Origin: Escherichia coli
Lineage (GTDB): Bacteria > Pseudomonadota > Gammaproteobacteria > Enterobacterales > Enterobacteriaceae
Strand: one strand, 5' to 3'
Length of the DNA: 64,000 bases
NCBI RefSeq assembly: GCF_003334255.1
Contig: NZ_QOWU01000022.1
Positions 144 to 36,005 of this stretch are shown here, piece after piece. Numbering within the stretch: the stretch's first letter is position 1; each line of letters opens with the position of its first letter. Position numbers and translations under genes: made by a program. The notes beneath the pieces were generated by a model that saw only the letters and a program-made list of their open reading frames with translations, was not told the origin of the DNA and ran no database searches.

Positions 144-2252
144 TCAGTACTCTCTCATATCCGGCGTATCCTGCTTTTCATCAGGGGTCTTCGGTGGGGA
201 TTTCGAGGCTGCACAGTTCCAGTTAATCAACAGTGAGTCACCATTAACCTGCTCCTTACCCTGCAAATGAATTTTTGTGCCGTTGAGAAAAATTTGTCCG
301 TCCTTCGTCAGCACCAGCCTTGCCTTACCACAGCAGAGCTCCAGATGCTCACCGGCGGAGTAAATCGCGGTCTGCCCGGTATCATCCTTTTTCGTTTTAC
401 CAACGGTGAAGGTAACGTTATTTCCGACTTTGACGTCATAACCCAGCCCGACCCTCAACGATTTATGCAAACCGATCTGCGAGGACTGCATCAGAGCCAC
501 CGAAGTGTTCATAATGCCACCTACCGTCGTCTGGTACGCCACGCCCACGGTCAGCGCACGAACAAGTCCAATCGTTTCCACCTGAACAGAACCCACTTTA
601 ATTATCTGGTTACTGCCCACCGTCTCTATCTGGTTGACACCCACCGTCTGTATCTGATTGTTGGTAACCGCAATCATCTGATTGTTGCCAATGGTTTCAG
701 CATGGTTGTTTATCACATCAGTGGTGCGGTTATTCAGCACCTCGGTGTTCATGTTCTTCTGCGCGTGGATGTAGACCTGTTCTTTCCCTGTCGCATCGTC
801 AAACTTCAGTTCATTAAACCCGCTGCCCTTATAGGTTTTCGAACGAATGGTCATCTGCGTCTTCGTCCCCGGCAGGCTGCCGGGTGTGCGGTTTTCATGG
901 TGGTAGGTACGCCCCATAATAATCGGCTGGTCCGGGTCGCCGTTGAGGAAGTCCACAATCACCTCCTGACCCACTCGCGGTATCGCCAGGTTGCCAAAGC
1001 CGGTGCCTGCCCACGCCTGTGCCACACGGATCCAGCATGAACTGTCCTGGTTTGACGGGTTATAGCGGTCCCAGTTAAATTTCACCCGCACGCGGCCATG
1101 TTCATCACAGAAGATTTCCTCGCCTGCCGGTCCCGTCACGACGGCGCTCTGCGGGCCGTCGACCAGCGGTTTCAGCAACGGCTGTGGTCGCCATGTTCTG
1201 TCTGCCGGGATCACCGCAAAATGGTTCTCCAGCGCCGTCCCCGCTCCCTGCCGTCCTGGCACCGCCTGTGGCTGTTCGCCGTGCAGTTCACTTGCCACCA
1301 CCTGCCATTCCCGGTTCAGGTTCGCCTGCGGATGCCCCGTCAGCACAATTCGTCGTCCCGGCCATATCTCCGGCGAGCGACTCATTCCCCGCGCGGTTTC
1401 TGCATTGTTTCGCCAGCCGTCCATCTGCCAGCGGGCAAAGTTCTGCCCGTGGGCACCCTTGAAACGTCCGGGGTAGTCATACACTTCATACTGCGTGCGC
1501 TGGTAGTCCTGGTGCTGGCCTTCCTGTTCAAAACGTCCGGCCCAGCCGGGGCGTTTAAAGGTGTAGTCTTTGGTCACCACGGAAGAAGGGCGGATTTGTG
1601 CGCTGTAGCGGAACTGGCTGATGCAGAGGGTGCTCACCTCGGTACGGGTGTTCGGGTTCCATGGGATTTCAAAAGATTCGGGCAGATGGCGGACTGTGTC
1701 GCACAGCACCAGGCTCTGGTCGGTACTTTTGTAAGCATGCTCCTCATAAAAGAAGATGCCTTCCTCCGCCGCCATCCGGCACAGGAAATCGTAATCAGTC
1801 TCACCGTACTGGACACAAAACTCACGGGAAGGATGCGGCTCGCTGAACAGCGGACTCCATTCGGTCACCCCGTTTTCCTGCAACATCGTGCCGAGGATGC
1901 TTTTGATGTCCTCGTTCTGGAAGATACGGAAGTTCTGGCGCAGACCGGCACGCCACAGCGGCGGGTGCACCTTCATGCTGTACAGCATCTGGTTTTTGTC
2001 GTTCTCCCCGAGTTCAAACCAGGTCACCACGCCTTTCACCCGGCGCTGTACTTCATCGCCCTGCCATATCGTCAGGTAGGCCATTTTGTCCAGCACCTGC
2101 GCAAATTCAAGGGAGAGAAACTGCTGGCTGACCAGGGAGAGATCGAGGGAAAAGAGCGAAGAGAGTGACTGGTTCAGATGAAAGGAAACCACCGCAAAAG
2201 CATCCGGCGGCAGGCCGTCCACTTCCAGTGTGAAACGTAATCCGGTTGACAT
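144..2252 (-). CDS. vgrG: Type VI secretion spike protein VgrG (about 702 aa)
   Basis: ORF track 144..2288; trimmed to ATG at 2250-2252 preceded by GGAGG SD; N-terminus MSTGLRFTLEVDGLPPDAFAVV and gp27/gp5-like body typical of VgrG. Confidence 0.85.
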   Translation of the reverse strand: MSTGLRFTLEVDGLPPDAFAVVSFHLNQSLSSLFSLDLSLVSQQFLSLEFAQVLDKMAYLTIWQGDEVQRRVKGVVTWFELGENDKNQMLYSMKVHPPLWRAGLRQNFRIFQNEDIKSILGTMLQENGVTEWSPLFSEPHPSREFCVQYGETDYDFLCRMAAEEGIFFYEEHAYKSTDQSLVLCDTVRHLPESFEIPWNPNTRTEVSTLCISQFRYSAQIRPSSVVTKDYTFKRPGWAGRFEQEGQHQDYQRTQYEVYDYPGRFKGAHGQNFARWQMDGWRNNAETARGMSRSPEIWPGRRIVLTGHPQANLNREWQVVASELHGEQPQAVPGRQGAGTALENHFAVIPADRTWRPQPLLKPLVDGPQSAVVTGPAGEEIFCDEHGRVRVKFNWDRYNPSNQDSSCWIRVAQAWAGTGFGNLAIPRVGQEVIVDFLNGDPDQPIIMGRTYHHENRTPGSLPGTKTQMTIRSKTYKGSGFNELKFDDATGKEQVYIHAQKNMNTEVLNNRTTDVINNHAETIGNNQMIAVTNNQIQTVGVNQIETVGSNQIIKVGSVQVETIGLVRALTVGVAYQTTVGGIMNTSVALMQSSQIGLHKSLRVGLGYDVKVGNNVTFTVGKTKKDDTGQTAIYSAGEHLELCCGKARLVLTKDGQIFLNGTKIHLQGKEQVNGDSLLINWNCAASKSPPKTPDEKQDTPDMREY

Positions 2253-3071
2253 AGCAACCTCCGTGAAAATGAATAATAATCCGCACATATTGCATGTACA
2301 ACATGTCGGGCGGATGAGATAAGCGAGTCGACATCTGGCGTTACCGGGGAATATCAGAAAAATGTCATGGTTATGTGATGATTTAGTCTGGGATTTTACT
2401 TCAGAGAAACGGGTGTCTGTTTAGTCAACAAAATAATCACAAACGCAACGGATGGGTTCTCGACGTTATTCACGACAGGCTCGTACATTACAGCGAGTAA
2501 TAAAAAACCTGATATGCAAAGTCAAACCAATATTCATAATGTCTTTTTATTCACAACAATAAATAATTCAATAACAATCATTGAAATGAATGATGGTTTG
2601 TATAAGGAATATACGCTACCGCCCCACCCTGATAACATGATCTGCACATTGCCATCTTAACGTCGTTAAACACTAGCTTAATAGTGGATATTTCAAATTA
2701 GGAATTTATTAAATTCACCTGATGAATATAATAAGCAAATAGCATAGAAAATAATGACAACTCCCCCGAGGGGACCATTTCCAAAGCACTGCACCACCAC
2801 CTGGTGCCGGATGATCTTGCTTCAGTGGTAAGAGTACCTGATGCATTGTTCCCAAAATGGTGTTTTCCCCTGCCCCTCCAATAATGTGTAGCTCTCACTT
2901 GATAATCTATTGATTAGGTTATATTAAGAATCAACATTTAAAATACATCCATTTTCTTGAATAAATCAACATGTTTATTAATCAATTGCTGTTTTAGCTC
3001 TGACTCATCAAGCTCTCCATATTTGTCCTACAGATAATTGCGAATAAATACAGAGAACGCCATTTATCCTT

Positions 3072-21479: not shown

Positions 21480-23441
21480 TTACCCTTTTCGCTTCGGCAA
21501 TGTTTTCAGCAGCTCATCCGGACTTACGGATGCCACTACGCTTCCCGGTAACGGCATTTTCAGTATGTGATTTTTGATTTTGCCAATGACGTGCATCTCG
21601 CATGGGCGGCAATCAAACTTTAGCGTTAATACTTCATCGCCGTTAACCAGTTGCATTGGCGTCGCCTTCCAGCTTTTGATATTGCCTTTCGCCTGTTTCG
21701 GGCACAGATTAAAGGCAAAGCGCAGACAATGCTTGGTGATCATCACCGGGACTTCGCCCTTCTCTTCATGTGCCTCATACGCCGCGTCAATCAGCTGCAC
21801 ACCATAGCGATGATAAAATTCACGCGCTTTCTGGTTGTATACGTTCGCGAGGAAACTCAGATGAGTTTGCGGATAAACCGGCGCAGGATCAGCAACCGGT
21901 TTACGGCTGCCCCGCTGGTAACTGGCAAGACGTGCAGCATCCAGCATGTCGGCGGCTTCACGGCGAAACTGGTTTAACAGACTGTTTGGTACAAACAGCG
22001 CTCCCGGCAAATTAATTTGCACATCGCGGGCGTAATAGAGGGTTTGCCCCAGTTTTGCCAGACCATCCTTCAGATTGCTCATTGCTTTTTCGGCGTTATT
22101 GGCTTCGTCGAACTGCCCATCCAGCGTATGCGTGATGCTGACCCCCTCTTCACTGGTGAGGGTCAGAATCAATTGTTCCTGCCAACCGCCCAGTTCAATG
22201 TCTACCGCCACCCGACGTTCGCTGGAGGTTTTTGTCAGTGCCTGCTGCCAGTTATGATCAAGATTACGGTTTAGTGGGTGATGCGGACGAATTTTGTGCA
22301 AATCTGCTGGCATTTCATTGGGCCAGACGCGGTACTGATTTTCTCCGGTTTTCTCGACCGTATTGGCACGAAAACCGACGACTTCACGTTTAATCATCAC
22401 GTTCAGGCCATCACCATTTGCCAGTGGCTCGGTGACGGCAACATCGAGATGATCTTTCGCCACTTTCAATACTTCACCCACCGGCAGGCCGATAAATTTC
22501 GGCGAATCGAACGCGCCAATATCGCCTTTACGGGCATTTACAAAATAATCTGTGCTACCACGGTGGAATGTCTTTTCCGTCGATGGAACAAAGAAATGTT
22601 CAGTACGACCTGATGAAGCACGCGTCAGATCGCCACGTTCTTCAATAATGGCATCCAGCATCTGGCGATAATGAGCAGTGATATTCTTCACGTAGCTCAT
22701 ATCTTTGTAACGCCCTTCAATCTTGAAGGAACGTACGCCAGCATCAATCAGCGCGCCGAGGTTGGCAGTCTGATCGTTATCTTTCATCGACAGCAGATGT
22801 TTTTCATAGGAAACCACCCGCCCCTGATCGTCTTTCAATGTGTATGGCAAACGGCACGCCTGCGAGCAATCGCCACGGTTGGCGCTACGCCCTGTTTGCG
22901 CATGAGAAATGTAGCACTGACCCGAATAGGCCACGCACAGTGCGCCATGAATAAAGAATTCAATGGTCGCGTCCGTGGCCTGGTGAATCGCGCGGATCTG
23001 CTCAAGATTCAGCTCTCGCGCCAGCACAATCTGCGTGAAGCCAACATCAGAGAGGAACTTCGCTTTTTCTACTGTACGAATGTCGCACTGCGTACTGGCG
23101 TGCAGTTCAATCGGCGGAATATCAAGTTCCAGAATCCCCATATCCTGAACAATCAGCGCATCGACACCGGTCTGGTAGAGGTCAGTAATCAGCCGTTGCG
23201 CGGGTTCCAGCTCATCATCATGCAAAATGGTGTTAAGCGTGACGAAAATTTTTGCACCATAACGATGGGCAAACGGCACCAGCTCGGCAATATCTTTCAG
23301 GCTATTACTGGCATTATGACGGGCACCAAAACCAGGGCCGCCGATATAAACAGCATCGGCACCGTGCAAAATAGCTTCGCGGGCAATGGCGGCATCGCGT
23401 GCCGGGCTTAACAGTTCAAGTCGATGAGAAGATACGGTCAC
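21480..23441 (-). CDS. rlhA: Peptidase U32-family protein YdcP/RlhA (653 aa, GTG start)
   Basis: ORF 21480..23483 begins at a GTG; the in-frame GTG at 23441 gives the K-12 length of 653 aa. Confidence 0.8.
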   Translation of the reverse strand: MTVSSHRLELLSPARDAAIAREAILHGADAVYIGGPGFGARHNASNSLKDIAELVPFAHRYGAKIFVTLNTILHDDELEPAQRLITDLYQTGVDALIVQDMGILELDIPPIELHASTQCDIRTVEKAKFLSDVGFTQIVLARELNLEQIRAIHQATDATIEFFIHGALCVAYSGQCYISHAQTGRSANRGDCSQACRLPYTLKDDQGRVVSYEKHLLSMKDNDQTANLGALIDAGVRSFKIEGRYKDMSYVKNITAHYRQMLDAIIEERGDLTRASSGRTEHFFVPSTEKTFHRGSTDYFVNARKGDIGAFDSPKFIGLPVGEVLKVAKDHLDVAVTEPLANGDGLNVMIKREVVGFRANTVEKTGENQYRVWPNEMPADLHKIRPHHPLNRNLDHNWQQALTKTSSERRVAVDIELGGWQEQLILTLTSEEGVSITHTLDGQFDEANNAEKAMSNLKDGLAKLGQTLYYARDVQINLPGALFVPNSLLNQFRREAADMLDAARLASYQRGSRKPVADPAPVYPQTHLSFLANVYNQKAREFYHRYGVQLIDAAYEAHEEKGEVPVMITKHCLRFAFNLCPKQAKGNIKSWKATPMQLVNGDEVLTLKFDCRPCEMHVIGKIKNHILKMPLPGSVVASVSPDELLKTLPKRKG

Positions 23442-23513
23442 ATTCTTATCCAGTAGCTGAAAAATGGCGGCTATTTTAGCCACAAGCGCGACGTTGCGAA
23501 ATAGTTTTCCCGC

Positions 23514-24050
23514 TTAACTGCGCGGGTAATGGATGAGGGAATGAAAATGTACGATTTGCTCCCTACCATTACGATAGACATGCGTGACGTCTGCAGCAAA
23601 TCGAGCGCCTTCCCCACAATTAAGGCTCTGCCATTCACCATCAACGCACAGATCAAGTTGTCCATCAATGACGACGACATGTTCGATTACCCCCTTCTCA
23701 TGGGGCGTCGATTCGCTTATTGCACCGGGTGCCATCTGAATCGAGAAGTGTTCAAAGCAGAGTTGTGGATCATAAGGAAACAGCGAAGTGATCACCATCG
23801 CCTGCTGTTGTGGATCATAAACTGAAGGCGTTGCGGACTGCGGCGGAGAAATAAATGTCGAAAATGGCACGTTCAACCCGGTGGCAATTTTCCATAATGT
23901 CGCGACCGTCGGGCTGGACTCATTACGCTCAATCTGCCCTAACATCGCTTTAGAAACGCCCGTCGCTTCTGCCAATCGCGAAAGACTCCAGCCGCGCTGC
24001 TGGCGTAGTTGTTTAAGTGTGGTGGATAAAAAGCGAGCGAGATTTTCCAT
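23514..24050 (-). CDS. ydcN: HTH (XRE-type)/cupin transcriptional regulator YdcN (178 aa)
   Basis: ORF track; N-terminal HTH (LKQLRQQRGWSLSRLAEATGVSKAMLGQIE). Confidence 0.85.
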   Translation of the reverse strand: MENLARFLSTTLKQLRQQRGWSLSRLAEATGVSKAMLGQIERNESSPTVATLWKIATGLNVPFSTFISPPQSATPSVYDPQQQAMVITSLFPYDPQLCFEHFSIQMAPGAISESTPHEKGVIEHVVVIDGQLDLCVDGEWQSLNCGEGARFAADVTHVYRNGREQIVHFHSLIHYPRS

Positions 24051-24141
24051 GCGACTCCTCCGGCAAAACGGAAGTTTATCACTTGTGCGTTATAACGGAC
24101 AAATGCTACGGTACCTGTACGCTATAACGCACGAGGTGACT

Positions 24142-25314
24142 ATGCGTCTGTTTTCTGTTCCTCCACCCACGCTACTGGCGGGGTTTCTGGCGGTATTAAT
24201 TGGCTACGCCAGTTCAGCGGCAATAATCTGGCAAGCAGCGATTGTCGCCGGAGCCACCACTGCGCAAATCTCTGGCTGGATGACGGCGCTGGGGCTGGCA
24301 ATGGGCGTCAGTACGCTGACTCTGACATTATGGTATCGCGTACCTGTTCTCACCGCATGGTCAACGCCTGGCGCGGCTTTGTTGGTCACCGGATTGCAGG
24401 GACTAACACTTAACGAAGCCATCGGCGTTTTTATTGTCACCAACGCGTTAATAGTCCTCTGCGGCATAACGGGACTCTTTGCTCGTCTGATGCGCATTAT
24501 TCCGCACTCGCTTGCGGCGGCAATGCTTGCCGGGATTTTATTACGCTTTGGTTTACAGGCGTTTGCCAGTCTGGATGGTCAATTTACGTTGTGTGGCAGT
24601 ATGTTGCTGGTATGGCTGGCAACCAAGGCCGTTGCGCCGCGCTATGCGGTAATTGCCGCGATGATTATTGGGATCGTGATCGTCATCGCGCAAGGTGACG
24701 TTGTCACAAATGATGTTGTCTTTAAACCCGTTCTCCCCACTTATATTACCCCTGATTTTTCGTTTGCTCACAGCCTGAGCGTTGCACTCCCCCTTTTTCT
24801 GGTGACGATGGCATCGCAAAACGCACCGGGTATCGCAGCAATGAAAGCAGCCGGATATTCGGCTCCTGTTTCGCCATTAATTGTATTTACTGGATTGCTG
24901 GCACTGGTTTTTTCCCCTTTCGGCGTTTATTCCGTCGGTATTGCGGCAATCACCGCGGCTATTTGCCAAAGCCCGGAAGCGCATCCGGATAAAGATCAAC
25001 GTTGGCTGGCAGCTGCCGTTGCAGGCATTTTTTATTTGATCGCAGGTCTGTTTGGTAGTGCTATTACCGGGATGATGGCTGCCCTGCCCGTAAGTTGGAT
25101 CCAGATGTTGGCAGGTCTGGCGCTGTTAAGTACCATTAGCGGCAGTTTGTATCAGGCGCTGCATAATGAGCGTGAGCGAGACGCGGCGGTGGTGGCATTT
25201 CTGGTAACGGCAAGTGGATTGACGCTGGTCGGGATTGGTTCTGCGTTCTGGGGATTAATTGCCGGAGGCGTTTGTTACGTGGTGTTGAATTTAATCGCTG
25301 ACAGAAACCGATGA
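24142..25314 (+). CDS. ydcO: BenE-family inner-membrane transporter YdcO (about 390 aa)
   Basis: ORF 23881..25314 trimmed to ATG at 24142 (MRLFSVPPPTLLAGF...) with GAGGTG SD. Confidence 0.85.
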   Translation: MRLFSVPPPTLLAGFLAVLIGYASSAAIIWQAAIVAGATTAQISGWMTALGLAMGVSTLTLTLWYRVPVLTAWSTPGAALLVTGLQGLTLNEAIGVFIVTNALIVLCGITGLFARLMRIIPHSLAAAMLAGILLRFGLQAFASLDGQFTLCGSMLLVWLATKAVAPRYAVIAAMIIGIVIVIAQGDVVTNDVVFKPVLPTYITPDFSFAHSLSVALPLFLVTMASQNAPGIAAMKAAGYSAPVSPLIVFTGLLALVFSPFGVYSVGIAAITAAICQSPEAHPDKDQRWLAAAVAGIFYLIAGLFGSAITGMMAALPVSWIQMLAGLALLSTISGSLYQALHNERERDAAVVAFLVTASGLTLVGIGSAFWGLIAGGVCYVVLNLIADRNR

Positions 25315-25348
25315 TAAAAAGCGCCATCTTACGATGGCGCGGCTGGAA

Positions 25349-26017
25349 TTACTTCTTGTTAACGTCAAACATGGTGGCATCGGTCGCCATGTCATCAATA
25401 ACTTGTTTAATATTTTCGAAAGCCATTGGCGTATTTTCGTTATTCAGGTCTTTACCTTCGCCCTGACGAACGACTTTGATAACCGGTTTATTAGTCGCTG
25501 CATCAATCAGCTCACCTTCAAAATAGAGGCGAGTATCCATGGTACGGTGGCCTGTAGCCATTTGCGTCCCCGCAACCACTAATGCAACAGGAACCACTTC
25601 ATAGAATTGCAGCCCTTCTTTGCTGGTATCTACACCGGTAATGGCCCCACGGAAAATCAGACTACGCGGCCCAGCGGTGGTAACCAGTGGTTTACGCTGC
25701 GCAATCGCTTCTTTCATTTCGGTGTTGGTATAGCTCAAAATTTTATCCAGAACTTTCTGCCCTACCTGGGTAGAAGGTTTTGGTACCGGATAATAAGTGA
25801 TTGGGTTCCAGACAATGCTGTCATATTTGCTTTGATCAAAACTCGGGTCTACCCAACGTAAAACAGGTTTACCTGTTGCTGAGGTTGTTTCTTTTAAATC
25901 AGAGTAATTGTTTAAAAAACCAGAATATTTATCTGGCTGGGTGATTTTAGAGGCACAACCAGACAGAGCCAACAAGCCGCATAAAGCTGCAACTTTCGCA
26001 AATGATGTGGTACGCAT
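25349..26017 (-). CDS. ydcL: Lipoprotein YdcL (222 aa)
   Basis: ORF track; lipobox LLALSGC. Confidence 0.85.
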   Translation of the reverse strand: MRTTSFAKVAALCGLLALSGCASKITQPDKYSGFLNNYSDLKETTSATGKPVLRWVDPSFDQSKYDSIVWNPITYYPVPKPSTQVGQKVLDKILSYTNTEMKEAIAQRKPLVTTAGPRSLIFRGAITGVDTSKEGLQFYEVVPVALVVAGTQMATGHRTMDTRLYFEGELIDAATNKPVIKVVRQGEGKDLNNENTPMAFENIKQVIDDMATDATMFDVNKK

Positions 26018-26319
26018 GAATAGTTTCCTGAGATGATTATATTACTTTTTAAGTTATAGCAAAAAGCGCCGCTTCGTGTTGTGGCAAAAAAAGTGTTGGT
26101 GAAAATAAATTTTTTAGCCCCTTTTCAGACGACATAGTCAATGCCGAAAAAGGGGCTAAGTCAATCATCAGTAGTTAAATTTCAGTATGTTAAGCTGATA
26201 AAAAACTTCGACTACTGTGATTAATTTCACATCACTTCGATAAAAAATATGCTTACCGAAAAGAAGAACAGTAAACCATCTCAGCGTGGGGAATTTTCAC
26301 GCGCTTTGTTCTTACCGGG

Positions 26320-26913
26320 TCATTTTTTACGTGCCAGCATCGTGGCGAAACGTAGTTTAATACGATTACCGTTGGCGTCGGTGCGGTGCAGCTCGCCGAC
26401 GTCTTCATTGTATTTCACCCTCTCCCAGCCTTCGTAATATCGACGTAATTCTCCCTCTTTGAAGGCAAACGGGAAGCCGACAGTACATGGATAATCAGCG
26501 GTATCCATCGCCGCCACAATCAGGTTGTAACCGCCAGGTTTAGTGCAACGCTGCATATTGGCAATCAGCCCTGGGATGGTTTTAGCCTCAAGGAACATCA
26601 GCACCACAGTCGAAAGAATAAAATCGTACTGTCCATCAAATGTGAGGTTATTCAGATCAACGACTCGGGTGTGTAAATTATCCAGATTTTCAATGGATTT
26701 AATGCGCTCTACATTGGCGATACTCATGGCATTTTTATCCCATGCGTCAACATCATAACCATTGGCTGCCAGGTAAAGACTGTTACGACCATTGCCACAG
26801 CCCAGATCCAGCGTTTTACCCGGTTTAACCACTTTCACCGCTTCCAGTACTTCAGAGTGTGTGCGGGTTAATTCATATTTATCAGTAAAATAGTTTTCGT
26901 CACGAATGATCAT
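26320..26913 (-). CDS. tehB: Tellurite methyltransferase TehB (197 aa)
   Basis: ORF track; SAM-methyltransferase motif I ([14 protein letters not shown]). Confidence 0.9.
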
Positions 26914-27902
26914 TCTTTGTCCTCTGCTTTCATTAAAACGGCGCGCTCAGTTCTGACTAACAATTTTCCCTGCATCAGAAGCGCAAAAGTACGGATGAGC
27001 AGTATTGCAATAATAAAATTGGTAAAGATAAACAGCGGCACCGCCAGCGTATGGAAAAATCCATTATCGCTGCCACTCCCCAGATGCAAACCGGTGGTTG
27101 CCAGTGCAGATACGCCGAACGAGAAACTCCAGAATGAAGCATTAAATGGCTGGGAGAGATACCATGGCATCAGACGTAGCATAAACAGCAGTTGCAGCAG
27201 TCCATAACCGAAAAGCATTTTCGCCAGCGTGTCACCCTCGCCGCCATTGACGCTCAGCCAGGCACTACAGGCCACCAGCGCAGGAGCGAGCTGAATGCCG
27301 AGTGATGTCCGCAGTGCCGTGGGTAATTCTCCCGAACTGCGCAGACGCTGCAAGATCACAGGTTCAAGGCTTAGCCATGAGAAAACGCCTGCGCCTAAAA
27401 ACACCAGACCGGCGTCGGTGTAGCCCAACGCACCACAGGCCATTGCGCTGATAAAGTTGTTGGCAACTGTCGGCAGATACAGTCCAGGCGTGGTAGCTTC
27501 TTCAGGGTGAGATCCGCGCCATAATCCCGCAGTTTGCCAGGCGGCATAAGCCAACTGAACCACGACACCAAAACTGAACAGGCACACCGCCAGTGGGCGA
27601 AACCACGGAACAAAACCAATCGCCACCAGCATCGTCGTTGCCGGAAACAAACTCACAAAACTGCTCAGCACTGGATGGCGCACTTCCGCCAGCACGCTAT
27701 GCGGAAAGCGTATGAGTCGGGTAATAAATGCGCTAGTTAATAATCCCCAGATGATCATCGCCAGAATCACCAGCCCATCCCCTAACCAGTGGCTGACCTG
27801 CCAAACCTGGCTGGCATAGCGCCAGGCAAATCCCATCCCTATCGTCCCCAACACAATACCAAAGTAGCCTGCCGGCAAATTGAGCACTTTATCGCTCTGC
27901 AT
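26910..27902 (-). CDS. tehA: Tellurite resistance / dicarboxylate-exporter-family membrane protein TehA (330 aa)
   Basis: ORF 26910..28010 trimmed to ATG at 27902 ([15 protein letters not shown]...); 4-bp overlap with tehB. Confidence 0.85.
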
Positions 27903-28025
27903 CTTCTTACTCATTTTGTTTAATTTATAAAGTATATTTGAAATACATTTTATGGAATTTTCTCGAGCATAGCCAGAGCCGCAGAATTTGCTACGGTTAT
28001 AGTAAGTCACCTGTGGGAAAACGCT

Positions 28026-29006
28026 ATGCGCAAATATCGTCTAAGTGAAGAACAGCGAGCCTTTAGTTATCAGGAAGATGGCACTAAAAAAAATGTGTTA
28101 TTACGGCAGATTATCGCCATTAGCGATTTTAACGATGTGATAGCAGGAACCGCTGGCGGCTGGATCGATCGCGAAACGGTGTTAGCACAGGAAGGAAATT
28201 GCTGGATTTACGACCAGAATGCTATTGCGTTCGGCGGAACGGTGATTTCCGGTAATACGCGTATCACCGGCACCAGCGTGCTGTGGGGAGAGGTTTACGC
28301 AACGGATAACGTCTGGATCGATAATAGTGAAATCAGCCAGAGTGCACATATAAGTGACAGTGTCACCATTCGTGGCTCATTAGTTTGCGGTCAATGTAGA
28401 ATATTTGGTCACGCCTTAATTGATCAACATTCTATGATCGTCGCCGCACAAGGCTTAACGCCCGACCATCAACTCCTGCTACAAATTTATGATCGCGCAA
28501 GGGTTAGCGCCTCGCGTATTGTCCACCAGGCACAAATTTATGGCGATGCCGTCGTCCGGTATGCTTTTATTGAACATCGCGCCGAAGTTTTTGATTTTGC
28601 CAGTGTTGAAGGTAATGAAGAGAACAACGTATGGCTATGCGATTGCGCTAAAGTCTACGGTCACGCGCAGGTGAAAGCTGGCATAGAAGAAGATGCCATT
28701 CCGACGATTCATTACAGTTCGCAGGTGGCGGAATATGCCATTGTGGAAGGTAATTGTGTGTTAAAACATCATGTCTTGGTTGGCGGAAATGCCGTGGTAC
28801 GTGGTGGACCGATTCTGCTCGACGAGCACGTTGTCATACAAGGTGAGAGCCGTATTACAGGTGCGGTGATAATTGAAAACCATGTGGAGTTAACCGACCA
28901 CGCCGTCGTTGAAGCCTTTGATGGCGACACGGTTCATGTCCGTGGTCCAAAAGTCATTAACGGCGAGGAGCGCATTACGCGAACGCCGCTGGCAGGGTTA
29001 TTGTGA
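28026..29006 (+). CDS. ydcK: Uncharacterized protein YdcK (326 aa)
   Basis: ORF track; repetitive V/I-rich periodic sequence. Confidence 0.8.
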
Positions 29007-29537
29007 ATCGATAATACGCGCGTATAAGTTCACATCATCATAGGCATCATTCAGGAACTCAGCCTGTTTAAGGCAACCTTCAAGGATAAAACCATTGCGC
29101 AAAGCGACCTGATTGCTTTGCGGATTGTCCACCCGACATTTGATCACAAAGCGTCTAAGTTCACCAGACTGGGCGTAATGATGAATCAGTGCCTGCAGCG
29201 CCTGAGAAATGATCCCCTGCCCCTGATGAGATTCGTCCAGCCAGTAGCCGATTTCAGCGGTTTTATTCAGTGGTTCAATTCGATTAAACGAGATAACGCC
29301 GATAAGTTCATCTTCTTTGAAAATCATGAACATTTTGGCATAGCCGCGTTGATGCAACATCACATTACCCTGCACCGTTTTTCGCGTGTCCTCTTCACTC
29401 TGAACAAACTGCGGCCAGTTTAGCGACTGCTGTAACCAGGTTTTATTTTTACAGATTAACTGATAAAGAGGAGTGACGTGATTTTCTGCAACAGCATGTA
29501 ATTCAAGTGATTCACTTACTTTTATCGTTTCGGTCAT
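28998..29537 (-). CDS. rimL: Ribosomal-protein-L7/L12 serine acetyltransferase RimL (179 aa)
   Basis: ORF 28998..29552 trimmed to ATG at 29537 ([14 protein letters not shown]...); 3' end overlaps ydcK by 9 bp. Confidence 0.85.
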
Positions 29538-29599
29538 CTTATCTCCAGTCAATCCATGCAGTTGTTAAAAAAGCCGCCTGGCTGGCGGCTTAGGAAAGT

Positions 29600-29824
29600 T
29601 TACACCTCTTTGACGCTCTCCTGCTGCAGGATTTTGAGCATCTCATCTTTTAACTGTAGCTTTTGTTTTTTCATGCGGACCACTTCCGCATTGTACCCTC
29701 GACCGTCGGAACCTTCCTTTCTGGCAATTTCATGATCAAGTTTATTGTGTTTATCGAACAAGGACATAAAGCGAGGATTTTCGTTTTTCAGACGGGATAT
29801 TAAATCTCGGTATTCTGGAAACAT
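29600..29824 (-). CDS. ydcH: Small protein YdcH (74 aa, DUF465-like)
   Basis: ORF 29600..29830 trimmed to ATG at 29824 with GGGAG SD. Confidence 0.75.
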   Translation of the reverse strand: MFPEYRDLISRLKNENPRFMSLFDKHNKLDHEIARKEGSDGRGYNAEVVRMKKQKLQLKDEMLKILQQESVKEV

Positions 29825-29963
29825 ACGCACTCCCTGTTAGTGGCTGACAAGGTGTATCTGAAATACACACCATCAGATTACTCATTTAACTTAGGGAAAA
29901 ATGCGAGCGGGATCGTGTTTAACCAGACGGCACCTCCCGTAGAAGGTGCCGAAGAAAAAACGA

Positions 29964-31619
29964 TTAACTCATCACACGGTCGTCAACATACTGACGTTTA
30001 TCCGGCGCTGGCGGGAAATACTGATACAGCCATGTTTCACTGATAGCGTCCCCCTGACAACGCAGATACATCCGCATATCGACCGGATCAGTGGAGTCCG
30101 AAGTCGGATACCAGTCAAACTGAATACGATAACCATCAATGGGTTCAATATAGAGAATTTCGATTTGCTTCGCTTCCCCACTGGAAAGCGTAATCACCGG
30201 CTCAATGCCTTTTGGCGCGGCAGCTTTCAGATCACCACCAACGAAATCGACGGCAAAACGACGCGCCCATTTTTCGGGATAATGTTCACCTGGTGCCCAG
30301 CCTTCCGGGAAACCGCCCATGCCGGTACGCGTCGCCATAACGCGCGCTAATGGGCAATGAACAGGCGGTTGCGCACTCCAGTACAGACGATACTGGAATG
30401 CAAACTCATCACCCGCTTTTACAGCTTTTTCTGGCTGCCAGAAGCAGACAATGTTATCCAGCGTTTCGCCCGTTGTTGGGATTTCCATCAGGCCGATGGT
30501 GCCCTTACCCCACTTGTTACGCGGCTCCACCCACAGACTTGGGCGTTTGTTATACCAGCCCATAATGTCCTGATAATGGGAGAAATCACGATCCAGTTGC
30601 AATAAACCAAACCCTTTCGGGTTGTTGTCGGTGTAAGCATTGAACTGCAATTTTTGTGGATTATTCAGCGGACGGCAAATCCACTCGCCGTTGCCCCGCC
30701 ACATGGACAGACGATCAGAGTCATGAATTTGCGGATGAATTGTATCGCACATCCGACGTTCATTAGTACCGCAGCTGAACATGCTGGTCATCGGCGCAAT
30801 GCCCAGCTGTTTAATGTCTTTGCGCGCATACAGGTGATTTTCCACATCCATAATCACCTGACTTTTCTCACAATGGATAGTGAACTTATAGGCACCAGTA
30901 ATGCTGGCGCTATCGAGCAACGCATAAACGGTAAAGGTAGTTGCCCCCGGTTTTACAGTATCAAACCAGAAGGCGGTAAAGTCGGGGAACTCTTCTTTAC
31001 TGTCGGTGTAAGTGTCGATCGCCAGGCCGCGGGCCGACAAACCGTATTGATATGTATCATCAACGGCACGGAAATAACTCGCGCCGAGGAATGATACTAC
31101 ATCACGGCGCGCCAGTTCGGGGGCTTTAAACACGCGAAAACCGGCAAAGCCGAGATCGCTTTGCCCTTCTAATTGTTTGGTATCAACACCCGCATCGTTG
31201 TATTTGAACAACTCCGGGCGAAAGTGAATTTCACGCGCCAGATGTGTTGCTGGATCTACAGAAAACATACGAACGCGGCGACGGAATCCCATTCCCATAT
31301 GGAAGAACTGAGCGTCCAGTTGACGGTTCTCAACGTTATGCCAGAGCGATTTTTCGGCGTCGTATTGAATACTGTTATAAGCCTGCGGCGTCATTGTCGC
31401 CAGCGTGTCAGGTAACGGACGCGGCGCACCACGCCACGCTGTTTGCGCTAAGTCGTGCGCCATTGACTGTAGAATGGAGAAGTCAAAACGCTGGGTTTGC
31501 CCGTCGGCAATATCAGAATCTGCCGCGAATGCCGCCTGAGAAAAAAGAGAAGCAATGCCGCTGGTACCGCACACGGCGGCCATAGCCATTGAACCTTTAA
31601 TAAATCGTCTACGATCCAT
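29964..31619 (-). CDS. opgD: Glucans biosynthesis protein D OpgD/MdoD (551 aa)
   Basis: ORF track; Tat-type signal ([16 protein letters not shown]). Confidence 0.9.
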
Positions 31620-31843: not shown

Positions 31844-33187
31844 TTAAAGCAAACCACAGCGACGTTTACTGCGTTCTTCCGCTTCCTGGTAAAGCTGGAA
31901 CTCATCCAAAACCGGACAACCCAACGCCTGCTCAAATGCTTCGCGACTGGCATTACCGTGACTGCGTGTCTGCGTTTCATTACCCAGATTTGACTGGAAG
32001 ATCCCCGCCGCGCTAACGGGCAAGAAATCTTCATAGGTAATGGGTTGCGCCACTACCCAACCGCGTTCAATTAAGGGCTGTGGATCGTCTCCGGGATGAA
32101 TCGCCTGACGATGCGCCTCACCCGAAGGCGTCAGACGGTACCGGAACCATGCCAACCCTTGCTGACGCATTAAAAACTCACTGTCAGGAAAAGTGCGGAA
32201 GGTTTCCTGTAAATGCATTTGGTGAGTGAGATTATCCTGCCCGGTTCCAGCGTTACACAGAAGATCATCATACAGTTGTCGCCCTTTCGGCGTTAATGCC
32301 ACACCACGCTGCTCTATTTCACCAAAGCGCGCGGTATGCGTGCCCTGTTTCTGCCCCGCAAACAACACCGTCTCTTCCAGTGCTTTAAAGCTGGTCTGGC
32401 GTAGTAAAATCGGTACCTCGCGGCGCGGCGGCCCCTCGATCAGAATTTTGGGTTCAATTCCGCATTCAGGCATCATCGACTGCACCCGGTCAATATCCAG
32501 CGTACGTGGCGTCAGGTGGTTGATATGGCATCCAGGAAAACAGACCACATCAGCAATCAACCGATGTTCGTTGTGCAAGGCGCGATAGGTTTCTTCATCT
32601 ACCGTTGCTGACTGGTGCCAGCGAAACGTTTCCAGGGCCTCTTGCACAAATTCCTGTGCCTGTGTTTCGTTAAAACCGCCCTGCTGCTCATATTCCTCTA
32701 ACAGTTGTCGACAACGTGGGGTGAAGATATCGCGCTGACGCAGAATCTCCGCCGCTTTCTGGCGCAAAATTTCGTTCTCGATAAGCTCAAGGCGGAGTAA
32801 GGAGGTAAAAACGCGGAAGGGATTACGCGCCAGAGAAGCATCATCAATGGGCCGAAATGCTGTCGAATGTACCGGCACCCCTGCCTGCGAGAGATCGTAA
32901 TAGCTCACCGGGTACATCCCCATAATGGCAAACATCCGCCGAAGAGTAGCAAGCTCTTGTGCAGTCCCAACGCGAATCGCCCCATGACGTTCAACATTCA
33001 GTCGCGCCAGCTCGTCTGCATTTACCATTTTTTCGTGCAGTTGAGGATTGTTTTCCAGCACAGCCAGATTCACATCAGCTACCAGTTCCAGCAGCGTGCC
33101 GTACTGCGGAACTTCTTGCTGGTACATGGCTGACATTGCCTGCGAAAACTGTTCCCGAATCTCATCCGCCGTGATGCTGTTCGCCAT
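31844..33187 (-). CDS. ydcJ: DUF1338-family protein YdcJ (447 aa)
   Basis: ORF track; synteny. Confidence 0.85.
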   Translation of the reverse strand: MANSITADEIREQFSQAMSAMYQQEVPQYGTLLELVADVNLAVLENNPQLHEKMVNADELARLNVERHGAIRVGTAQELATLRRMFAIMGMYPVSYYDLSQAGVPVHSTAFRPIDDASLARNPFRVFTSLLRLELIENEILRQKAAEILRQRDIFTPRCRQLLEEYEQQGGFNETQAQEFVQEALETFRWHQSATVDEETYRALHNEHRLIADVVCFPGCHINHLTPRTLDIDRVQSMMPECGIEPKILIEGPPRREVPILLRQTSFKALEETVLFAGQKQGTHTARFGEIEQRGVALTPKGRQLYDDLLCNAGTGQDNLTHQMHLQETFRTFPDSEFLMRQQGLAWFRYRLTPSGEAHRQAIHPGDDPQPLIERGWVVAQPITYEDFLPVSAAGIFQSNLGNETQTRSHGNASREAFEQALGCPVLDEFQLYQEAEERSKRRCGLL

Positions 33188-33403
33188 AGTGTCTGCCTCC
33201 AGTGGTCAGTAATCTGGAGTGTAGGTAACCGCATTCACTCTTGCGGGAAGAATTTACAAACTGTGATCTCGCCGCGAAAACATCAATATTATCCATTTTG
33301 CTGTAACATAATTGCTTTAATTGTTAATAATATTTTGCAATCAAGTTATCATAATCAAACAACTTCACTTGTCAGCGACACCGCTTCGTTTTTAACATCG
33401 CTT

Positions 33404-34327
33404 ATGGAAAAAAATAGTCTGTTTAGTCAGCGCATCCGTTTGCGCCACCTTCATACATTCGTAGCTGTCGCACAACAAGGAACTTTGGGGCGCGCGGCTG
33501 AAACCCTTAATTTGAGTCAACCTGCGCTCTCTAAGACATTGAATGAACTGGAGCAGCTGACTGGCGCTCGCTTGTTTGAGCGTGGTCGTCAGGGGGCGCA
33601 ACTTACCTTACCCGGCGAACAATTTTTAACGCATGCAGTCAGAGTTCTTGACGCCATCAACACTGCCGGACGGTCGCTTCATCGTAAAGAAGGTCTTAAT
33701 AATGATGTCGTCAGGGTTGGTGCACTACCTACTGCGGCACTGGGGATATTACCTTCGGTTATAGGTCAGTTTCATCAGCAACAAAAAGAGACGACCTTGC
33801 AAGTTGCGACAATGAGTAACCCTATGATTCTGGCGGGTTTAAAAACCGGGGAAATCGATATCGGCATTGGTCGGATGTCAGATCCTGAACTGATGACCGG
33901 GCTTAATTACGAACTGCTGTTTCTTGAATCGTTGAAGCTGGTTGTCCGCCCTAATCACCCGCTACTTCAGGAGAACGTAACGCTAAGCCGGGTGCTGGAA
34001 TGGCCGGTCGTTGTATCACCAGAAGGCACTGCGCCACGCCAGCATTCAGATGCATTAGTGCAGAGCCAGGGCTGTAAAATTCCTTCGGGTTGTATCGAAA
34101 CGCTGTCTGCTTCGCTATCTCGTCAACTTACGGTTGAATACGATTACGTGTGGTTTGTCCCTTCTGGCGCTGTAAAAGACGACCTGCGTCATGCCACGCT
34201 GGTGGCCCTGCCTGTTCCGGGACATGGTGCAGGCGAACCGATTGGAATACTGACCCGCGTAGATGCGACGTTCTCTTCTGGTTGCCAGTTGATGATTAAC
34301 GCTATTCGAAAATCAATGCCGTTCTGA
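33404..34327 (+). CDS. ydcI: LysR-family transcriptional regulator YdcI (307 aa)
   Basis: ORF 33263..34327 trimmed to ATG at 33404 (MEKNSLFSQRIRLRHLHTFVAVA...). Confidence 0.85.
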   Translation: MEKNSLFSQRIRLRHLHTFVAVAQQGTLGRAAETLNLSQPALSKTLNELEQLTGARLFERGRQGAQLTLPGEQFLTHAVRVLDAINTAGRSLHRKEGLNNDVVRVGALPTAALGILPSVIGQFHQQQKETTLQVATMSNPMILAGLKTGEIDIGIGRMSDPELMTGLNYELLFLESLKLVVRPNHPLLQENVTLSRVLEWPVVVSPEGTAPRQHSDALVQSQGCKIPSGCIETLSASLSRQLTVEYDYVWFVPSGAVKDDLRHATLVALPVPGHGAGEPIGILTRVDATFSSGCQLMINAIRKSMPF

Positions 34328-34364
34328 AAGGTGAAGGGATCTGTCGATCCCTCCTTGAATATTT

Positions 34365-36005
34365 TCACACCGTAGCGAAACTAACTGGTTCACCCGCTCC
34401 GCGAGGTTCTGCCGACACAGAATGTTTGTGCAGACGGAATACATCCACCGCCTCAGTTAATCGTGCCGCCTGTTCTTCAAGGGACACCGCCGCCGCTGAG
34501 GCCTCTTCTACCAGAGAAGCATTCTGTTGCGTCACCTTATCCATTTCAGAAATCGCCTGGCTAACCTGCGTTATGCCTCTACTTTGTTCATCCGAGGCGG
34601 CGGCGATTTCCTGCATGATATGTGTGACACTCGCGACGGCATCAACAATAGTGCTCATGGTTTTCCCGGCCGTTGCCACCTCATCCGACCCCAGGTCAAT
34701 TAACCTGACTGATTCACTGATCAAGCCTTCAATCTCTTTCGCCGCCTGAGCGCTGCGACTTGCGAGTGTCCGTACTTCGCTGGCGACAACGGCAAATCCA
34801 CGCCCTTGCTCACCCGCTCGCGCGGCTTCAACGGCAGCATTCAGTGCCAGAATATTCGTCTGGAAAGCAATACTGTTGATGACGGCGGTGATCTCAGAAA
34901 TTTTCTTCGAACTCGTGGAGATAGCGCCCATCGTTTTTACTACACCGGAAACCGTCTGCCCGCCATCGCTGGCTTTAATAGAAGCCTCTTGCGCCAGTTT
35001 GCTGGCATGATGCGCGTTATCCGCATTCTGTTTCACCGTCGCAGTGAGTTGCTCCATGCTGGCGGCAGTTTGTTCGATAGCCGCCGCTTGTTCTTCGGTG
35101 CGAGATGACAGGTCCGCATTGCCAGCTGAAATTTCGCTGGTGCCACGATAAATCTCTTCCGCGCCCTGTCGAACAGTCCCTACTGTCATCCCCAGTGAAT
35201 GCTGCATTTGCTGTAAATGACGACTTAAGCGACCGATTTCATTACGACCCGCCGGTTCATCATTCATCGTCAGATCGCCACTGGCGATTTTTTCAATCCG
35301 TTGTGCGGCATGTTGCAGTGGACGAATGACGATCCGACGTAGCACCATAAATGTTATCAGCGTCATGACCAGGGCAAGCACAAACGCGCCAATCATGAAC
35401 ATCCCACCCAGGCGGGTGCGCTGATGGGCCAGTTCCGCCAGTTGGTTGGCTCTGGTGCTACGTATCTTAACGGCTTTGTTCAAAATATCGGTATAAGCAT
35501 TATCCAGCGGTCGGATCTGCTCACTTTCATGATTGATAATCGCTTCAAACATGCCATTTTTGGCATATTTCAACATAGGTTGCATACCCGTGATATAAGC
35601 CTGGAAGCGTTGATTTAATTCAGTGTCGAGGGCTTCATCAGCAGGTGTTTTCACCGGCCGATTCTGATAAGCACGATAACCTTGCTGCGACTGTTTAATC
35701 TCCGATTCGGCTTGCGCAATATTTCGCTTCATTGCTTCCATTTCCGCAATACGACTCGCAGCCCCGGCCTGAATCATATTGATCCGGGCTGAACGCAAAA
35801 AATCTGAACTGTTCGCTAACCCGGTCCGAATCTCAATCTCCGCAGTAACATCACGCTGATCGCGATCGGCCTGCCAGAGGAAATAGCCAGCCAGGGCTGA
35901 ACTTAATGCGAATAGAACTAAGATACCGCCTAGAATGCAGGCAAATAACGGAACCAATCTGATGTGATGCAAAAAACCTAATCGCTGTGAGGGAGTTGTA
36001 TTCAT
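34365..36005 (-). CDS. trg: Methyl-accepting chemotaxis protein III, Trg (546 aa)
   Basis: ORF track; two TM segments, HAMP domain and conserved MCP signalling domain. Confidence 0.9.

Follow-up and report, generated by a model that had tools for sequence, protein, structure and literature searches.

In Escherichia coli K-12 MG1655 the genes ydcL and ydcO are separated by an insertion sequence, IS609, and a sequence-only reading of the DNA analysed here (64,000 nucleotides, hereafter the window) had proposed that the element is missing from the spacer between the same two genes. The locus raises two questions, namely where the insertion point lies at the level of single bases, and whether the lineage that the window represents lost the element or never carried it at this site. 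The proposal itself was borne out, as both the MG1655 annotation and our BLAST comparison place IS609 between ydcL and ydcO in K-12 and find it absent from the window.

The ydcO/ydcL junction and its vacant IS609 target

The two genes converge on a short spacer. The coding sequence of ydcO (24142..25314, plus strand) was taken from the open reading frame list and a match to the NCBIfam model TIGR00843, benE (718.7 bits), which assigns this first reading frame to the BenE-family transporters, i.e. to ydcO. The mechanically listed reading frame spans 23881..25314 on the plus strand and so opens upstream of the start at 24142, and RefSeq annotates genes of either 1173 bp or 1212 bp at identical loci. 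In translation the window protein ends in ...ADRNR* at the gene’s own TGA stop codon (25312-25314). Its neighbor ydcL (25349..26017, minus strand) encodes a DUF3313 lipoprotein of 222 residues according to the open reading frame list and to RefSeq, whose annotation of corresponding loci from other genomes supplies the names of both genes. The sequence and the reading frames confirm the coordinates given earlier for the ydcO stop (25314), the ydcL stop on the opposite strand (25349) and the intergenic spacer of 34 bp between them (25315..25348). Among 13 genomes compared, position 25300, which specifies a residue five positions before the YdcO C-terminus, is tri-allelic (G, A or C, encoding Asp, Asn or His, respectively). 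An Rfam scan of window positions 23000-27000 returned no credible RNA family, and nothing hidden in the spacer.

The spacer does contain a hairpin that a terminator scan and RNA folding identify as the predicted intrinsic (Rho-independent) terminator of ydcL (25321..25340, minus strand). Read on the minus strand from 25340 to 25321, it consists of GCGCCATC, the loop GTAA and GATGGCGC, and is followed by TTTTTATCAT; the stem has 8 pairs, 6 of them G-C, and encloses a loop of 4 nucleotides. Its RNA fold has an energy of -16.3 kcal/mol (z = -3.5), which none of 200 shuffled sequences equaled. On the transcribed strand a stem-loop rich in G+C thus precedes a T/U run, and the arrangement resembles Rho-independent terminators located between other convergent genes in its G+C-rich 8-bp stem, 4-nucleotide loop and TTTTT on the ydcL strand. 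It differs from them in that the ydcO strand carries no U-tract after the hairpin, and for this reason it looks like a terminator that works in one direction. The 34-bp spacer is an ordinary intergenic region between convergent genes, in which the hairpin and T-run would end transcription of ydcL.

In the MG1655 record, IS609 is annotated as a mobile_genetic_element at 1503161-1504908, between ydcL (b1431) and ydcO (b1433). It contains the pseudogene yncK (b4578), a decayed tnpA, and an intact insQ/tnpB gene (b1432) whose product is described as a ‘putative RNA-guided DNA endonuclease InsQ’. The sequence-only reading had placed insQ/ydcM, as a transposase gene, at this position; the gene is indeed present in K-12, but it encodes a TnpB-type RNA-guided nuclease, whereas the transposase gene of IS609 is tnpA, which in K-12 survives as yncK. 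Alignment of the window with 85 kb of K-12 (1455000-1540000) yielded two BLAST blocks, each ~98.4% identical, that pair window 2320-25312 with K-12 1527904-1504910 and window 25313-49046 with K-12 1503161-1479417. The break falls between 25312 and 25313, where 1748 K-12 bases have no counterpart in the window. The insertion point used in K-12 and in ~60% of E. coli genomes, located by the BLAST break and by base-by-base comparison of the flanks, therefore lies between 25312 and 25313, within the TGA stop codon of ydcO. The earlier reading thus had the right junction but not the right interval, as the insertion point is 2 bp to the left of 25315-25348. Aligned to both K-12 flanks, the window reads ...AACCGAT followed directly by GATAAAAAGC..., while the K-12 junctions read ...AACCGAT followed by ATTGACATCC... 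at one end of IS609 and ...GGCGCACCG followed by GATAAAAAGC... at the other. Both K-12 flanks align to the window without gaps, such that no base is gained or lost and there is neither a target-site duplication nor a footprint of the element; each boundary is unambiguous, as different bases stand on its two sides. Comparison with empty sites defines the inserted segment as K-12 1503162-1504909 (1748 bp). The GenBank feature of MG1655 (NC_000913.3; 1503161-1504908) is displaced by 1 bp relative to this segment, and K-12 base 1503161 lies outside IS609, where it supplies the final C of TTATC. Across the spacer region the window and K-12 differ at four positions (25330, 25342, 25349 and 25355).

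Neither coding DNA nor ends of the element were detected elsewhere in the window. Searches of the 64 kb with K-12 IS609 (blastn) and InsQ (tblastn) gave chance matches only (E ≥ 0.018), and the IS609 ends, whose hairpins are imperfect palindromes of the CCCTGAAGG type, have no match anywhere in the window. In K-12, subterminal hairpins are present at both ends of IS609, as is typical of the IS200/IS605 family. Members of this family transpose as single strands by a ‘peel and paste’ mechanism, insert 3’ of a short specific sequence without duplicating it, and excise without a scar to leave a sealed donor joint that retains the target (PMC5027513; 10.1101/2023.03.14.532601). For IS609 this sequence is the pentanucleotide 5’-TTATC-3’ (the ‘TAM’ of the associated TnpB), which adjoins the left end of the element at three independent loci (ydcL, TetR/ytfB and yedK). 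In the orientation of the element, the left-end flanks are CTTTTTATC at the ydcL locus, where the element begins CGGTGCG..., GGTTTATC at TetR/ytfB and GGCTTATC at yedK, and at further loci left-end matches run 6 nucleotides into a TTTATC flank. In the window the pentanucleotide is intact (25313..25317, minus strand) and stands directly 5’ of the insertion point on the strand corresponding to the element’s top strand (25317 to 25313), and the site is colinear with both flanks of the occupied allele; TTATC also forms the tail of the T-tract of the predicted ydcL terminator. IS609, moving as single-stranded DNA, accordingly places its left end directly 3’ of TTATC without a target duplication. 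In K-12 the insertion separates ydcO from the terminator and gives it one additional Tyr codon and a new TGA stop; K-12 YdcO ends in ...ADRNRY*, with its TGA supplied by the end of IS609. With nothing inserted, the window gene keeps its own TGA and the target stays intact.

The window thus shares with MG1655 the same IS200/IS605-family insertion site, both flanks, TTATC and an unchanged 16-nucleotide right-end flank, and differs in lacking the element and in a YdcO that uses its own stop codon and has no extra C-terminal Tyr. The 16 nucleotides that adjoin the right end of IS609 in K-12, 5’-ATCGGTTTCTGTCAGC-3’, occupy 25297..25312 on the minus strand of the window. Together with TTATC they are identical in sequence to the ‘donor joint’ expected after scarless excision, a concept taken from 10.1101/2023.03.14.532601. 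The same juxtaposition of TTATC and ATCGGTTTCTGTCAGC is a perfect sequence match to, and hence the predicted target of, an InsQ-ωRNA complex of the K-12 type. Vacant donor joints of the Geobacillus ISGst elements are cut by TnpB-ωRNA (10.1101/2023.03.14.532601), and the window resembles them in that its TAM, TTATC, abuts the right-end flank; it differs from them in encoding no InsQ, and cleavage by InsQ and an IS609 ωRNA at this site is putative. An Rfam scan of K-12 IS609 identified no credible family and no match to an ωRNA model, and our literature search for the IS609 target or TAM and for InsQ activity found only genome surveys that list the element. Relative to better-characterized relatives, the target of IS609 is distinct from that of IS608 of Helicobacter pylori, which inserts 3’ of TTAC (PMC5027513). 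IS609 nonetheless resembles IS608 and ISDra2 in having subterminal hairpins at its ends, in not duplicating its target and in the sealed donor joint, target included, that remains after excision. The target of ISDra2, from Deinococcus radiodurans, is TTGAT. In its gene layout K-12 IS609 is of the IS605 type, with divergent tnpA and tnpB, unlike IS608, in which the two genes are co-directional. As judged from its coordinates, the top strand of K-12 IS609 is on the plus strand of the clockwise replichore and would be the lagging-strand template. By these alignments the interval represents the empty allele at a well-known site where the presence of IS609 is polymorphic.

Empty and occupied alleles across E. 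coli

The frequencies of the two alleles were determined in 5,426 complete E. coli genomes. The site is empty, with a 901-bp stretch across it in one piece, in 2,136 genomes (roughly 39%); 3,265 genomes contain the junction between the IS609 right end and ydcO, 3,268 contain the junction between ydcL and the left end, and about 16 have other arrangements. IS609 as such is found in 5,016 of the 5,426, the median number of matching places per genome being two. The alleles also differ in the target itself. TTATT and TTATC were counted with 30-base queries that were accepted as matching only if a 28-base stretch over base 25313 was exact. By this measure TTATT stands at no fewer than 1,984 of the 2,136 empty sites and just 24 genomes retain TTATC as in the window, whereas all occupied alleles carry TTATC; an intact TTATC at this site is therefore nearly always occupied (~3,265 occupied against 24 empty). 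The TTATT sites of O157:H7, O150:H6 and strain 447 read AACCGAT/AATAAAA, in contrast to the window and the K-12 flank, which give TTATC. The hairpin loop of the window is found in 19 of the 24 TTATC-empty genomes, including all of its close relatives, and the other five belong to lineages that are 2-3% diverged from K-12.

The base that distinguishes the two target sequences, 25313, is at once the last base of the IS609 target and part of the ydcO stop codon (G or A, giving TGA or TAA). Among 13 genomes all four combinations of its alleles with those of position 25330, only 17 bp away, are found, which means that mutation has recurred or that the two positions have been separated by recombination. 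The scarcity of TTATC among empty sites could in principle be a population footprint of InsQ-ωRNA, which would cut vacant TTATC sites and so spare chiefly those empty alleles whose TAM has mutated, by the kind of TnpB homing described in 10.1101/2023.03.14.532601. If so, the window lineage would hold a rare vacant site that is still cleavable, but we regard this reading as very improbable. The change at 25313 is a neutral switch from TGA to TAA within the ydcO stop codon, and simple inheritance from an A/B1-type ancestor that had the target and received one old insertion explains most of the counts. Selection for escape at the TAM is retained only as part of this low-probability reading: in the 13 genomes 2 of 21 sites vary in TTATC and its 16-nucleotide flank, compared with 63 of 1,200 in adjacent ydcO, so that ~1 is expected and there is no excess. 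Outgroup polarization of 25313 was attempted by searching one genome per species with a 20-mer over the empty junction, AACCGATNATAAAAAGCGCC, and its 8 matches were all due to chance. They occur in eight metagenome-assembled genomes (Clostridia, Nitrosomonas, Tagabacteria and others); contamination of these assemblies by E. coli was rejected as an explanation, as they have no other similarity to the window.

Origin of the empty state

The closest relatives of the window are uniform at this site, with all 17 genomes that are at least 99.5% identical to it over 21 kb being empty, while the nearest occupied genomes are ~99.0-99.1% identical over the same length. We compared the window in 500-bp SNP bins with six occupied genomes (K-12, LR-45, O104:H4, BE2-5, A34 and 23CRST025). 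It differs from them at 8-9 positions within the 500 bp to the left of the junction and at 4-11 within the 500 bp to its right, and over 6 kb of either flank the occupied haplotypes sampled are ~1.2-1.4% or more divergent. On these grounds we rejected a recent excision from an allele like that of K-12, since no sampled occupied haplotype is close at the junction and every close relative is empty. As far as the sampled haplotypes reveal, the empty site is a lineage-wide and stable state. The TTATC site is likewise empty in strain LP5-1 (NZ_CP101866.1), whose identity to the window is 99.8% over 21 kb; ~111 kb from that site the strain carries a copy of IS609 (2331651-2334657) that is interrupted by an IS3-family element. 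The lineage has thus hosted IS609 with its ydcL/ydcO site unfilled.

The occupied alleles appear to derive from an old insertion. Seven IS609 copies from the locus, one per genome, are 1.2-1.9% apart except for two near-identical pairs, and tnpA is disrupted in all seven by differing lesions; the combination of this divergence with the different tnpA lesions indicates that the insertion is old. In six of the seven copies insQ is intact, while the tnpA lesions differ between lineages. One premature tnpA stop (...GVSGR*) is found both in a copy at ydcL/ydcO and in the one at yedK, a hint that gene conversion has taken place between copies or that one of them derives from the other. A single common tnpA lesion as proof of one insertion event was considered and discarded, as stops and frameshifts vary from lineage to lineage and the yedK copy has one of these stops as well.

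From this distribution we consider it fairly probable that the window lineage never carried IS609 at the ydcL/ydcO site. Two observations weigh against this reading. Twelve occupied genomes have a related spacer haplotype with the window-type loop (T at 25330), although the three of these that were examined still diverge from the window by ~1.2-1.4% or more along 6 kb of either flank. In addition, recombination has made the region a mosaic, and the local tree of the left flank disagrees with that of the right. A site that was never occupied and one vacated long ago look alike in sequence, as these elements excise without a scar, and the principal alternative is an old, precise excision in which TnpA acting in trans from another IS609 copy would have regenerated the donor joint of TTATC and flank. 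Such scarless excision with retention of the target is known for the family (PMC5027513; 10.1101/2023.03.14.532601), and the window does keep the TTATC of all occupied alleles, whereas at least 1,984 of the 2,136 empty sites read TTATT. The near-identical genome LP5-1 has IS609 elsewhere, intact tnpA copies exist in E. coli (e.g. CEC03102), and the window-type loop is shared by the 12 occupied genomes. We nevertheless judge an old excision to be unlikely: no sampled occupied genome is near the window at the junction (4-11 differences in the 500 bp adjoining it on either side, and ~1.2-1.4% or more across 6 kb), tnpA is broken in 7 of 7 locus copies examined, and the emptiness of all 17 closest genomes requires that any excision be old.

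Still less probable, in our estimation, is replacement of an occupied allele through homologous recombination by an empty allele from a divergent E. coli lineage. The mosaic structure of the region would accommodate such an exchange, as a block around the site with 8-24 mismatches/kb lies between patches nearly identical to K-12 (0-3 mismatches/kb at 14-17 kb and 33-36 kb), the segment at 28-31 kb is nearly identical to strain LR-45, the left-flank and right-flank trees disagree, and the four allele combinations of 25313 and 25330 arise over only 17 bp. However, most of the 52 kb aligned to K-12 is 1-2% or more diverged, such that the divergent state looks like the lineage’s own background and the K-12-like patches look imported, and no donor lineage was found. 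An assembly artefact, in which a repeat was collapsed or skipped, is suggested by nothing beyond the general possibility of repeat mis-assembly and is practically negligible, since 19 independent complete genomes share exactly this empty junction, 2,136 are empty at the site, and the window matches both K-12 flanks base for base across the junction.

The surrounding region and the meaning of the empty site

The sequence-only reading had linked the missing IS609 to the absence of IS2 and IS30 from ydbA and to a background with fewer insertion sequence copies than K-12 in this region, and both statements hold. K-12 IS2D and IS30C give no BLAST match in the window, so that none of the three K-12 copies (IS609, IS2D and IS30C) is present, and the ydbA homologue is one uninterrupted reading frame of 1901 codons (52841-58546, minus strand) that encodes a BigA-like autotransporter, with 54% identity to YdbA as joined from its K-12 fragments. 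The inference should be limited to the homologous region, because IS609 is so widespread among the genomes surveyed and LP5-1 has its copy only ~111 kb away. Window positions 2320-54539 are colinear with K-12, with the missing IS609 and a 1.6-kb deletion as the only large differences, and no insertion of IS size was found in the window relative to K-12 over this range. Those parts of the window without a K-12 match that were examined encode VgrG, the YdbA homologue, YdbH, LdhA and HslJ, and no transposases.

Several further features of the region were observed. A deletion of 1601 bp relative to K-12 (K-12 1477816-1479416) at window 49038-49046 takes away ynbB entirely, together with the 3’ part of ynbA and the initial ~279 bp of ynbC; the flanking BLAST segments overlap there by 9 bp, which suggests microhomology at the ends of the deletion, and the 556-residue reading frame that is left (47568-49238, minus strand) may be a ynbA’-‘ynbC fusion. 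The window lacks the fea-tynA-paa (phenylacetate) cluster that separates ydbH from ydbA in K-12; here ydbH, ldhA and hslJ directly follow the intact YdbA/BigA-like gene (52841-63830). At the other end, positions 1-2320 have no match in K-12 1455000-1540000, and a full-length gene for the type VI secretion protein VgrG (144-2288, minus strand; TIGR03361, 624 bits) is located where K-12 has the rhsE pseudogene region. Divergence along the window is uneven, with 0-3 mismatches/kb to K-12 at 14001-17000 and 33001-36000, 0-2 mismatches/kb to LR-45 at 28001-31000, and 8-50 mismatches/kb to K-12 outside the near-identical patches; this pattern in the aligned sequences indicates recombination patches.

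The empty ydcL/ydcO site is an ordinary presence/absence polymorphism of a catalogued insertion sequence, a phenomenon that is already known and indicates no new biology. For the source strain it means that the ydcL/ydcO locus is not K-12-like, and its wider importance is small. The by-products of the comparison are the base-exact insertion point of IS609 together with its TTATC target, a 1-bp correction of the element’s boundaries in MG1655, and the allele frequencies in 5,426 genomes. Lastly, the rare TTATC-empty allele would be a convenient natural substrate with which E. coli InsQ could be tested as a homing nuclease.
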